A stretch of 64,000 nucleotides of DNA from Escherichia phage vB_EcoM_Skers, in the sequence record MW748999.1. One strand, given 5' to 3'. A program made the position numbers and the translations under genes. Of this stretch, positions 2,705 to 27,407 are shown one piece after another. The notes beneath the pieces were generated by a model. That model was not told the DNA's origin and searched no databases. It saw only the letters and a list, made by a program, of their open reading frames with translations. Numbering within the stretch: position 1 is the first letter of the stretch; each line of letters starts with the position of its first letter.

Positions 2705-3259
2705 ATGCTCTTTTCTTTCTTCCCTGCCATTGAATACAACGGCAAGATGATTACTGACATTGTGCGCAATTACCGCGCATATTTCAACGCAATAATTTCT
2801 GATTATAACATACAAACATATTACATTCAAGGTAGTCCACGACCGGAACAAGTTGCATATGAAGTATACGGAAACCAACAACTTTATTGGATCTTGCTGA
2901 TGCTTAATGACGTATACGATCCGTTCCATGACTGGATCACCGATCAAGAGACAGCATATGAATCAGCCGAACAACGATATGCAAACGTAGGAGGAAATCA
3001 AGTATTATACCACGTTGATATTGACGGAAACAAGTATTGGAATCTTACCGAATATCCGAAAGGATCAAGCAATTGGTATGATAAAGGGGATATTCATCAC
3101 CGTTATTTGCAGTTTCAGGGTGCATTATCGGCAGTAGACACACTGGAAGATGCGATCCTCCGTAATGAGGAACGACGCAAGATCAAGATCATAGATCCTA
3201 CACAAATTAAACAATTTATTAACGCATTCATTCGAGAAATGGAAAAGGCTGATGTGTAA
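2705..3259 (+). CDS. 53: gp53 baseplate wedge protein
   Basis: 184 aa immediately upstream of gene 5; N-terminus MLFSFF..NYRAYFNAIISDYN resembles T4 gp53 as remembered. Confidence 0.7.
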   Translation: MLFSFFPAIEYNGKMITDIVRNYRAYFNAIISDYNIQTYYIQGSPRPEQVAYEVYGNQQLYWILLMLNDVYDPFHDWITDQETAYESAEQRYANVGGNQVLYHVDIDGNKYWNLTEYPKGSSNWYDKGDIHHRYLQFQGALSAVDTLEDAILRNEERRKIKIIDPTQIKQFINAFIREMEKADV

Positions 3260-25260: not shown

Positions 25261-25848
25261 CTAAATATCTAACCAAGACAAGTCAGATCCGCCCAAGATT
25301 TTTTCGACGGCGGATCTATTTTCTTGATGATATAAGTTAAAACATGGTATCCCATGTCTACGGGCAACATAAACAGCAATTCTAGTTCCTCCAGAAACGA
25401 TTCCATTAACTTCTTTCGCCCAGAATATCACACAATCTACAGGATCATCAAGTGTCTCACCTAAGACTTGAGCAACATTTCTAGAAAACAGATTTTGCAT
25501 GTATAACGGTATAGAACGAGGATTATCATAAACGTGTTCTAATTCATCCATCGCCAGATTTTTTTGTTCTAAGGTTTGCCATGCAATCACATCATGACCG
25601 TTATGCTTGTGGTCATAAAACTTCCAATTTGGAATGAAAATTTTTCTATAATCTGGATCGTAATACTTCATGAAAGCATTGTCCATACCGTAAGCCCCTC
25701 CAGAATGCGCTACAACGCGATTTTCTGACAATACCCTCCCAATGGTACTAGCCATTATCAAAATGTCGCTAGGCGCTTTTCTAGAGCCGATTAAAGCACA
25801 TCTACGAAGTTGTTTTACTCCAAATAGATCTTGTAACTGGTCAAACAT
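25261..25848 (-). CDS. DprA/Smf-like Rossmann-fold (SLOG superfamily) protein
   Basis: 195 aa; motif ALIGSRKAPSD...VVAHSGGAYGMDNAF resembles the DprA/LOG nucleotide-binding core (GSR-x-x-S ... SGGA-x-G-x-D); family assignment by motif only. Confidence 0.55.
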   Translation of the reverse strand: MFDQLQDLFGVKQLRRCALIGSRKAPSDILIMASTIGRVLSENRVVAHSGGAYGMDNAFMKYYDPDYRKIFIPNWKFYDHKHNGHDVIAWQTLEQKNLAMDELEHVYDNPRSIPLYMQNLFSRNVAQVLGETLDDPVDCVIFWAKEVNGIVSGGTRIAVYVARRHGIPCFNLYHQENRSAVEKILGGSDLSWLDI

Positions 25849-26002
25849 AATATTTCCTCCATAGAAAGCAATATCATACTACAAGTTAATAACAAATACA
25901 AGTATCCGCGTAGCGGAAGCGAGCACAGCGAGCAATAAAAACACTTCCAGTAATTGATTAATAAATGTTCGAAACAAATTTTTATTATTCTATAAGATAA
26001 GT

Positions 26003-26186
26003 CTTCGTTTTGATCATAATTTAATCATACATGTAAAAACTACACAAAAGGATATCGCTTCGCGAACTCCTACGGAGTATAACATTTGTGTTACAATATG
26101 TAGTGATTAATAATTAACCAAAGATACATTTTCTATGTTCTAAAGATCTTTCTTCGTTTTGATCATAATTTAATCAAACAGTATTA
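26003..26186. repeat. two copies of a 25-bp direct repeat (CTTCGTTTTGATCATAATTTAATCA) about 159 bp apart in a 410-bp intergenic region
   Basis: identical 25-mers at about 26003-26027 and 26162-26186, each followed by a CATGTAAA-containing segment; read directly. Confidence 0.6.
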
Positions 26187-26230
26187 ACATTGTGCACATG
26201 TAAACTAAAATTATGTTAATAACAGATACA

Positions 26231-26254
26231 AAAAAGCCGTCCCGAAGGACGGCT
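26231..26254 (-). terminator. rho-independent terminator after minus-strand gene 26263..26700
   Basis: minus-strand reading GCCGTCC-TTCG-GGACGGC followed by TTTTTTG. Confidence 0.7.
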
Positions 26255-26262
26255 AATGTTAA

Positions 26263-26700
26263 TTATTTGTTGATAACGATCTGATTTCGGCGAATGGTAA
26301 CATTACTCTTAGAGATGATCAGATCATCCGGCACTACGTTAGTTTTGTATGGCTGGAAGCGAACAAGCATCTGATTGCGTTTAGACCCTTCCTTAATCTT
26401 GATTTCCATCTGGATATTGTTGCCTACGTGAGCAACCGCAATTTCACCTTTATTCTCATAGACCCACTTGCTGGTAACGTCTCCAGCAAAAGCCTTAATA
26501 ACTTGCAATGCTTCGTCGTATGCGGTAGAGCTATGAACTTTCAGAAGGCCAGCCGTAGCAAGACGGGAGCAGGTGATCGCCGGAGATTGCCAAACATCAA
26601 CATTAATTTGCTCAATCAGAGTAACACCGCCTTGATCAACTGCTTTGAATGCTTCGAACATTGCCTTTTTCATTGCTACGTGGTTTTTACGGAATTTCAT
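26263..26700 (-). CDS. hypothetical protein (145 aa)
   Basis: ORF track; followed by a clear terminator; no family recognised. Confidence 0.5.
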   Translation of the reverse strand: MKFRKNHVAMKKAMFEAFKAVDQGGVTLIEQINVDVWQSPAITCSRLATAGLLKVHSSTAYDEALQVIKAFAGDVTSKWVYENKGEIAVAHVGNNIQMEIKIKEGSKRNQMLVRFQPYKTNVVPDDLIISKSNVTIRRNQIVINK

Positions 26701-26746: not shown

Positions 26747-27022
26747 TCAGGACATTGCCCGTTTGAATGCGTCCATTATAACAGTGTTATTTGGCTTGTC
26801 AACACGTTTTTGAACTTTATTTTTAAATTTTTTGTTGATGTGGTGTTTACGATAAACAACCTTTTCACGGTTGGCGTAAGCCTCGCGTGCATCTTTTACC
26901 ATCAACCATGCCTTAGCCGCATCTTGTCCGCTGATCCCGCCAATCTTCTTAGCAATATCAACAAAATTAAGACCGTGGTCTTCGCGTAGCATGTAAACCC
27001 TTAACGCTGTTTTCTTGTCCAT
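26747..27022 (-). CDS. hypothetical basic protein with helix-turn-helix-like segment (about 91 aa)
   Basis: ORF track 26747..27130; start placed at internal Met (MDKKTALRV) forming a TGATG stop/start overlap with the upstream ORF; LNFVDIAKKIGGISGQDAAKAW resembles an HTH. Confidence 0.4.
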   Translation of the reverse strand: MDKKTALRVYMLREDHGLNFVDIAKKIGGISGQDAAKAWLMVKDAREAYANREKVVYRKHHINKKFKNKVQKRVDKPNNTVIMDAFKRAMS

Positions 27023-27219
27023 CACTTCGCCCCATTGACGATTAACAGGATAGTGATCAGTACCGGAAACTGGATCATGACAGTACCAATAAACCGGATA
27101 AACGCATTTTCTGACTTCCACACATGACATGCGACTAGCTGATAGACCATTGTTGCAACCAAAGCCAGAAAATACATCTCGATTGGTGCTTCTTTGATCA
27201 ATCGTACAATCTCATTCAT
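27022..27219 (-). CDS. hypothetical small membrane protein (65 aa)
   Basis: ORF track; hydrophobic stretches (YFLALVATMVYQLVA, VMIQFPVLITILLIV); GAGGTGA SD upstream. Confidence 0.4.
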   Translation of the reverse strand: MNEIVRLIKEAPIEMYFLALVATMVYQLVACHVWKSENAFIRFIGTVMIQFPVLITILLIVNGAK

Positions 27220-27375: not shown

Positions 27376-27407
27376 AACAAAAAAGCCACCCCGAAGGATG
27401 GCTGATA
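27376..27407 (-). terminator. rho-independent terminator after hoc
   Basis: minus-strand reading GCCATCC-TTCG-GGGTGGC followed by TTTTTTGTTTTT. Confidence 0.7.

Follow-up and report, generated by a model that had tools for sequence, protein, structure and literature searches.

In the upstream activating region of the E. coli stable-RNA promoter rrnB P1, Fis sites are found at -71, -102 and -143, and in the Fis recombinational enhancers of the Hin, Gin and Cin systems paired Fis sites, 48 bp apart, act together with a serine invertase. Among small DNA structures, d(GCGNAGC) mini-hairpins with GNA triloops have reportedly been characterised by Hirao, Yoshizawa and co-workers, and such hairpins are known mostly as DNA-level curiosities of ssDNA phage origins and elsewhere. 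The transcription control of T4-type phages is usually described in terms of phage factors (Alt/Mod, AsiA/MotA, gp33/55) and of promoter strength, and the T4 MotA middle promoters carry the element (a/t)(a/t)(a/t)TGCTTtA about 12 bp upstream of the -10. Phage RB49 has no MotA orthologue, no middle promoters and no middle-promoter motifs (PMC1524935), and the timing and tuning of early genes in RB49-like phages, which lack the MotA middle mode, are poorly understood. The same phage group carries the promoter-early stem-loop cassettes (PeSLs) of RB49 and phi1, a genome-wide set of roughly 50 members in which intergenic AT-rich DNA, sigma-70-like elements and stem-loops follow a terminator, and between whose copies recombination occurs (Arbiol et al. 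2010, PMC2839356; Comeau et al. 2014, PMC4122927).

Here we analyse a repeat-bearing noncoding spacer of Escherichia phage vB_EcoM_Skers, which lies in a stretch of 64,000 nucleotides of record MW748999.1 (hereafter the window). The spacer is like the rrnB P1 Fis region in that several 15-bp matches to the pattern GNNYAWWWWWTRNNC are clustered in a stretch of about 250 bp of AT-rich sequence that precedes a sigma-70 promoter, but all four spacer sites are strict matches, against one of the three rrnB sites. It further differs from rrnB P1 in belonging to a lytic T4-type phage and not to a host gene, in having no site near -71, in the separation of its duplicated units by hairpins, and in that its sites are predicted. 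Paired predicted Fis sites at a fixed distance on a short segment of a phage or mobile element also recall the Hin, Gin and Cin enhancers; however, neighbouring sites are here separated by 56 or 93 bp, and the surroundings contain no invertase gene. Like the T4 MotA middle promoters, the candidate sites would be regulatory elements that a phage places before early or middle genes, but the repeat contains no Mot box TGCTT. A MotA/AsiA-type binder, which the preliminary description of this locus had put forward, is therefore unlikely, since the box is absent from both strands of the 26-mer and RB49 is without a MotA orthologue (PMC1524935).

With the PeSLs, the locus shares the phage group, the AT-rich intergenic setting with sigma-70-like elements and stem-loops after a terminator, recombination between copies, and the stability of the stem-loops (here 26077-26067, 26065-26055 and 25917-25905). 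It is unlike them in that the units of this phage lack the signature of TTGACA, G-C stem and TATAAT, in that no ORF with a Shine-Dalgarno sequence directly follows the units, only the proximal promoter preceding the DprA-like gene, and in forming a private two-copy family instead of a genome-wide set. The PeSL paper makes no mention of ORF164/165, direct repeats or tandem copies.

The locus and its repeat units

The region 25200-26800 matches 58 Krischvirus genomes (RB49, Phi1, JSE, GEC-3S and others), T4-type coliphages of the Straboviridae, at 95-99% identity. All genes around the spacer lie on the minus strand (Table 1). The spacer upstream of the DprA-like ORF is 414 bp of noncoding DNA (25849-26262), close to the 410 bp given in the preliminary description, which had rightly called it an AT-rich intergenic region bounded by a terminator: its AT content is 70% against a window mean of 60%, and the hairpin of the terminator forms its upstream edge. 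The terminator is also annotated in GEC-3S and G37-3, and in RB49 by TransTerm. Beyond it, annotations contain almost no feature of the spacer, apart from small ORFs called by a few automatic pipelines. A conserved "empty" spacer of 330-570 bp is left blank in current annotations.

Table 1 Features of the spacer and neighbouring genes, in window coordinates
Feature	Position	Strand	Description
Hoc-like gene		-	first listed in the local gene order, before the gp24.3-like ORF
gp24.3-like DUF2774 ORF	26747-27130	-	
145-aa ORFan	26263-26700	-	upstream neighbour of the spacer
Intrinsic terminator of the 145-aa ORF	26235-26254	-	stem GCCGTCC/GGACGGC, loop TTCG, then T-run
Unit A	26091-26188	-	upstream copy of the ~100-bp direct repeat; gapped self-alignment, homologues across lineages
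Exact 26-bp core, copy A	26151-26176	-	self-comparison
Candidate site 1A	26161-26175	n/a	Fis-type 15-mer GATCATAATTTAATC; strict match to GNNYAWWWWWTRNNC; inside core A
Candidate site 2A	26105-26119	n/a	Fis-type 15-mer GATTAATAATTAACC; strict match; diverged half of unit A
Extended -10-like element	26076-26084	-	TGTTATACT, at the start of the central segment; TGTTAAAAT in L006 and L042
Central segment	26051-26077	-	two mini-hairpins, CTCC-GTA-GGAG (26077-26067) and TCGC-GAA-GCGA (26065-26055)
Unit B	25945-26040	-	downstream copy of the ~100-bp direct repeat; gapped self-alignment, homologues across lineages
Exact 26-bp core, copy B	26002-26027	-	self-comparison
Candidate site 1B	26012-26026	n/a	Fis-type 15-mer GATCATAATTTAATC; strict match; inside core B
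Candidate site 2B	25956-25970	n/a	Fis-type 15-mer GATTAATAAATGTTC; strict match; unit B
Proximal hairpin	25905-25917	-	TCCGC-TAC-GCGGA, just upstream of the -35 element
Proximal sigma-70-like promoter of the DprA-like gene	25873-25901	-	TTGTAT-17-TATGAT
DprA-like ORF	25261-25848	-	ATG at 25848, preceded by Shine-Dalgarno GGAGG

The 145-aa protein encoded upstream of the spacer belongs to PHROG 15652, of unknown function, and is confined to Krischvirus-like phages. A Pfam search with it gave no match. A single-sequence AF2 model was poor, whereas a model from 10 sequences was good (pLDDT 81), with helices followed by a small beta-sheet; it had no fold match in the PDB at E < 0.7 and no obvious HTH, which leaves a guess by eye that the neighbour is a winged-helix regulator unsupported. 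Two smaller observations concern the surrounding genes. If an upstream ATG is taken as its start, the gp24.3-like DUF2774 ORF has 127 aa, while most annotations give 91 aa (276 nt); a predicted RB49 early promoter, Pe:98401, falls within this extension (about 26766-26815 of the window), and the shorter gene is therefore favoured. The terminators after the 145-aa ORF (26228-26257) and after the Hoc-like gene (27377-27406) are 30-mers of 87% identity, which read ACAAAAAAGCC..CCGAAGG..GGCT and have TTCG in the loop on the transcribed strand, and thus form a repeated terminator module.

The 25-mer CTTCGTTTTGATCATAATTTAATCA occurs exactly at 26003-26027 and 26152-26176 of the plus strand, and these are its two copies in the window, as had been described; in gene sense it reads TGATTAAATTATGATCAAAACGAAG. 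There is no further copy in the window with up to 3 mismatches, and none of 100 shuffles matched at 3 mismatches. Full exact identity extends over 26 bp (26002-26027 and 26151-26176; TGATTAAATTATGATCAAAACGAAGA in gene sense) and similarity over 38 bp at 89%. The distance of about 159 bp reported for the pair has to be corrected to 149 bp from start to start. The stretch CATGTAAA does follow each copy (26030-26037 and 26197-26204), though not at equal distance, owing to 18 extra nucleotides in copy A; when this indel is allowed, the shared TTTACATGT, which is the same feature, is aligned.

The 25-mers are the best-kept cores of two noncoding units of ~100 bp, which stand in direct orientation on either side of a short hairpin-bearing centre. 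The gapped alignment of 26188-26091 with 26040-25945 scores 86, against 28.7 +/- 5.1 for shuffles, and the part of the unit downstream of the core is similar by itself (P = 0.013). The earlier suggestion that the 25-mers mark the ends of a small duplicated element was thus wrong in detail, as they are conserved cores and not termini. The 64-kb window holds no third copy of the unit, and the four matched places per genome that were returned by the 58-genome search are self-hits and the terminator.

No conserved ORF was found in the spacer, and neither unit is followed by one. Tiny ORFs starting at ATGATC in the core (MIKTKKDL* and MIKTKTYLIE*) were considered as coding and rejected: none is preceded by a Shine-Dalgarno sequence, and the relatives L006, L037 and L040 lack them or carry different ones. 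The conserved central block also stands in different frames in the window and in L006, which together with the missing conservation of the tiny ORFs removes a peptide reading and does not touch an RNA reading.

Conservation and concerted evolution of the units

Comparison with related genomes, which the preliminary description had proposed as a check, showed that the repeat is retained. The full spacer with both copies is present in all 58 Krischvirus genomes of the database, at 94.7-99.3% identity, and two units occur in five of six diverged lineages. When 18 of the more divergent Krischvirus genomes were aligned, 7-11% of the columns varied in most segments of the spacer between 25849 and 26176, as compared with 20-24% at the third codon positions of the two flanking minus-strand genes, which argues that most of the spacer is under constraint. 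The region is not simply cold, because two hypervariable patches (26028-26044 and 26177-26234) reach 41-53% variable columns in the same 18 genomes.

The diverged lineages are metagenomic. L006 is an IMG/VR contig that was found through its DprA-like protein and whose 145-aa protein is 92% identical to that of the window; L036, L042, L037, L038/L039 and L040 were found through homologues of the 145-aa protein, with 56-89% identity. A metagenome scan with the 145-aa protein gave two close relatives, and the protein-database route was far more productive. IMG/VR scans with short words of the spacer returned mostly chance matches in unrelated high-GC phages for TTCGCGAAGCGATATC, and one unrelated temperate-phage locus, at chance level, for TGATTAAAWTATGATCAAA. 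Gene order and a noncoding spacer are kept in all six lineages, across 56-92% identity of the 145-aa protein; its length is 326-575 bp in the lineages with a complete spacer on the contig, and the contigs of L037 and L042 end within it. The two units are spaced 125-170 bp apart: 97 nt at 91% identity and 170 bp apart in L006, 86 nt at 86% and 140 bp in L038, 49 nt at 98% and 125 bp in L040, 15 and 14 nt and 147 bp in L036, and two units of 77% identity in L042. L037 has a single unit, and its junction coincides with the microhomology GTTTTTA, which suggests that a unit was lost or gained there by a microhomology-mediated event; the same 7-bp word brackets unit B in the window (26040-26034 and 25942-25936; L037 locus 2948-3233).

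These data also bear on whether the repeat could be left over, without function, from a local duplication. T4-type phages are recombination-proficient and readily give rise to direct repeats, yet this one is kept in 58 of 58 genomes and varies less than synonymous sites, its two-unit layout persists where the neighbouring protein is only 56% identical, and a perfect run of 26 bp amid the diverged remainder of the unit is unexpected under uniform decay. We consider a mere leftover very improbable.

The best match of each unit is the other unit of the same genome (77-88% identity, against 33-77% between genomes), and the units therefore evolve in concert, by gene conversion or by recurrent re-duplication. 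As a noncoding repeat pair of a phage genome that evolves in this way, the locus is a clean, small example. In L036 and L040 the stretch over which the two units agree longest falls elsewhere within the unit, a shift for which patchy gene conversion accounts no less well than constraint on one element; the perfect 26-mer of the window may be as much a recent conversion tract as a sign of constraint.

Candidate Fis-type sites

The pattern GNNYAWWWWWTRNNC is the characterised high-affinity sequence of E. coli Fis (PMC3302801). Its strict matches number six in the 64 kb of the window, and four of these lie in the spacer, two of them inside the repeat cores; the core 15 bp, GATTAAATTATGATC, fits it exactly and agrees with the Fis consensus GNTYAAAWTTTRANC at 14 of 15 positions. 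The four candidate sites are centred at 26168, 26112, 26019 and 25963. Of the three readings offered by the preliminary description, a pair of regulatory protein-binding sites thus appears to be the best supported one, corrected to four predicted sites with the pattern of host Fis.

The motif enrichment is strong. Dinucleotide shuffles of the spacer give 0.048 expected matches, none of 20,000 reached four, and one 149-bp unit has two sites against 0.015 expected. When seven lineages were pooled, there were 25 matches in 2,847 bp of spacer (0.41 expected) and 5 in 94,763 bp of flanks, although the 25 include duplicates within a genome and related lineages, so that the independent events are well below this number. 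By lineage, strict matches per spacer are 6 in L006 (of 7 in the 10.7-kb contig), 6 in L038 (of 8 in the 5.5-kb locus), 4 in L042, 2 each in L036 and L037, and 1 in L040. Eight control patterns of equal information content were run. The seven with G/C, Y/R or A/T swapped or with 14- or 16-bp spacing had 0-3 matches in the spacers. The eighth, which was enriched, asks for Y at -5 together with R at +5; the sites comply with it through their T at -5 and their A at +5, both of which belong to the fuller Fis consensus. The enrichment is therefore specific to the polarity and spacing of the consensus, and AT-rich dyads alone are insufficient for it; since the consensus was recognised after the sequence had been seen, these controls lessen that bias and do not remove it. 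As a positive control, the strict pattern was run on 50 kb of E. coli K-12 around rrnB and gave one match, centred at -143 of rrnB P1, which we take to be Fis site III. IHF and DnaA boxes, looked for by eye, gave no match.

The way in which the sites vary is also consistent with the pattern. Within the four 15-mers there are seven variable columns among the 18 aligned genomes, of which five fall at N positions, one changes W to W and one breaks the pattern; the chance of at least six pattern-preserving changes out of seven is estimated at roughly 0.025. Site 2B shows no variation in the 18 Krischvirus sequences, and homologues of site 2A are kept in L006, L036, L037, L038 and L042. Site 1 has G-7, A-3 and C+7 invariant in all 13 aligned units and is identical between window and L038 at 18 of 19 positions over TGATTAAAWTATGATCAAA, where the adjacent protein is 56% identical; it is degraded to 13-14 of 15 in L036, L042 and L037, and L040 retains one strict match. 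Many differences separate the sites of the window from those of L006 and L038, yet G-7, Y-4, A-3, T+3, R+4, C+7 and the AT centre are kept.

A separate observation is that phages G2248 and PHB13 have lost the GATC (a Dam or DpnII-type site) from the two repeat cores; the substitutions differ but hit one and the same position of the repeat (26013 and 26162 of the window). This is an N position of the 15-mer, and the Fis pattern is intact in their copy B; their copy A also carries T>C at 26166, which breaks the pattern.

The 15-mers might instead be operators for a phage-encoded DNA-binding protein, possibly from among the conserved neighbouring ORFs, with the likeness to Fis sites being only a resemblance. 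The synteny of the 145-aa ORF, the spacer and the DprA-like gene in all lineages would suit such a protein, as would near-perfect palindromes such as GATTAAT-T-ATTAATC in L038, which are expected for a dimeric binder. However, no candidate was found; the 145-aa protein has neither a Pfam match, a PDB fold match nor an obvious HTH. Moreover, the sites are fixed at -7, -4 and -3 but free to vary at -6 and -5, as Fis sites are, and do not show a contiguous half-site. This alternative is, in our opinion, improbable.

Promoters and a possible control region of the DprA-like gene

Downstream of unit B follow a conserved block, GCTCGCTnTGCTCGC, then the proximal hairpin, and then a modest sigma-70 promoter. 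This proximal promoter is conserved, as TTGTTT-17-TATGAT in L006, TTGTTT-17-TATAAT in L036 and TTGATT-17-TATAGT in L038. The candidate sites lie at about -97, -153, -246 and -302 of its start, positions that are approximate since the start is predicted, and in the window, L006, L036 and L038 site 2B is centred between -94 and -101 relative to the predicted start of this promoter. In L006, an insertion of ~148 nt (2270-2420) stands between the proximal promoter and the start codon of the DprA-like gene; it contains repeated CTAAAATC and GTTTTAG words and could be a structured leader or another small cassette.

Within either unit of this phage, no sigma-70 match reaches 9 of 12; the best score 7.5-8 of 12, with TTAGAA (unit A) and TATAGA (unit B) as the -10 equivalents. 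The published HMM of RB49 early promoters places none in the spacer, the nearest being at 98401 (about 26815 of the window), upstream of the 145-aa ORF. These results speak against tandem promoters in this phage, another of the earlier readings, whereas its relatives L006 and L040 do carry good ones. The L006 units contain TTGACA-17-TGTAAT twice, overlapping site 2, with an ACAC/GTGT stem in the spacer; the L040 unit has TTGAAC-17-TATAAT inside a hairpin, and L038 and L037 have ATGATC-17-TATAAT and TTCATC-17-TATAAT, respectively, the -35 overlapping site 1 in these three lineages. Because the promoter position shifts among lineages, promoter elements seem to come and go around motifs that stay.

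The main rival explanation is that the units are two tandem PeSL-type early promoter/stem-loop cassettes with no dedicated binding protein, in which the core would be the UP-element and -35 of an (A/T)TGA(T/A)C-17-TATAAT-like sigma-70 promoter, and the pair would add strength or be left over from cassette shuffling. The good promoters in the units of L006, L040, L038 and L037 fit this explanation, as does the missing unit B of L037 with its junction at GTTTTTA, and PeSLs are known recombination substrates in RB49 and phi1 (PMC2839356). Nevertheless, we regard it as unlikely. In this phage no unit-internal match attains the 9 of 12 level and the RB49 HMM is silent in the spacer; the units bear little resemblance to the canonical PeSLs of the window, with their A-rich tract, TTGACA, GGGG..CCCC stem and TATAAT; the unit has neither another copy in the window nor an ORF behind it; the promoter moves between lineages while the 15-mers stay; and the polarity-specific enrichment of the pattern is not explained by AT-richness alone.

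Our tentative preference is that the spacer holds a host-factor (Fis-type) site array in the upstream control region of the DprA-like gene, Fis being named here from its consensus. Two AT-rich dyads of 15 bp per unit agree with the high-affinity consensus of Fis, one of the two lying inside the core, and host Fis, or a protein of the same specificity, would bind and bend the spacer DNA. The bound protein may then modulate, and most likely activate, weak downstream sigma-70-type promoters, probably the proximal TTGTAT-17-TATGAT with sites at about -97 and -153, and possibly the central extended -10 element; the small GNA-loop hairpins would act as attenuators between the modules, and gene conversion would keep the two units alike. 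A fuller version of this proposal, which we hold to be rather doubtful, is that a strictly lytic T4-type phage has a duplicated, conversion-maintained, rrn-like Fis upstream activating region, and that only hosts which grow fast and are rich in Fis would allow it to turn on the DprA-like early gene, or else some DNA transaction at the locus, for example the firing of an origin. If true, this would be direct sensing of the growth state through a host nucleoid protein, in a phage group without the MotA middle mode, and a conserved consensus Fis array would point to direct use of a host growth-phase protein. A literature search on Fis in T4-type phages found none, and one on Krischvirus transcriptomics found nothing relevant.

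On the plus strand, a sigma-70 match of 10 of 12 (TTAACA-16-TAAAAT, 26184-26211) points away from the DprA-like gene and runs antisense toward the 145-aa ORF. It was rejected as a promoter, since its -35 needs the C at 26188, where each of the 17 other aligned genomes has T, and since the match lies in a hypervariable patch.

Hairpins of the spacer

The central mini-hairpins take the forms CC-GTA/GAA-GG and GC-GAA-GC. The second one (26065-26055) is part of the block TTCGCGAAGCGATATC (26066-26051), and L006 and L042 have this block unchanged. The stem of this hairpin co-varies, from TCGC/GCGA in the window to GTTGC/GCAAC in L036, ATGC/GCAT in L037 and TGC/GCA in L038, and in a six-lineage alignment of the central hairpins 95% of cells are paired and three pairs are changed on both sides, a score that 4 of 500 shuffles equalled or exceeded. 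The proximal hairpin reads TCGGC-GTA-GCCGA in L006, with a compensatory change at the third pair.

One or two short noncoding transcripts, or a structured leader, could run from the units to the central and proximal hairpins, with the repeat being part of the RNA. The compensatory changes in the conserved central hairpins, the extended -10 element before them and the T-runs behind them in L006 and L037, which make them terminator-like, are what such an RNA would predict. On the other hand, an Rfam search of the window gave no match at the gathering score, only weak terminator-like ones of 14.8-22.4 bits against the 47-80 bits required, a tRNA search found none, and the folding energy of the spacer RNA is ordinary (z = -0.7 sense and -1.8 antisense). 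We judge the RNA alternative quite improbable.

The hairpins can also be viewed as DNA. The central GCGAAGC and the proximal GCGTAGC are exactly of the d(GCGNAGC) form, although both may simply be RNA attenuators. An element that acts at the DNA level, for instance an origin of replication or a hot spot of recombination, would make use of bent AT-rich DNA, repeated sites and stable d(GCGNAGC)-type mini-hairpins. The AT-rich region with its repeated sites and promoter-like elements agrees with it, as do the recurrence of GCGAAGC/GCGTAGC-type hairpins and the switching of the GNA loop between strands among lineages, which suits a DNA-level role. This support is, however, purely circumstantial, and the T4 origins oriF and oriG consist of a middle promoter and an unwinding element, not of repeats, which counts against it; we think such an element highly improbable. 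The d(GCGNAGC) form itself is found in the window (26055-26065 and 25905-25917) and in the spacers of L006, L036, L037, L038, L040 and L042, as GCGAAGC in the centre and as GCGTAGC or GCGCAGC at the proximal hairpin, where the GNA loop is on the gene-sense strand in L006 and L040 and on the antisense strand in the window, L036 and L038.
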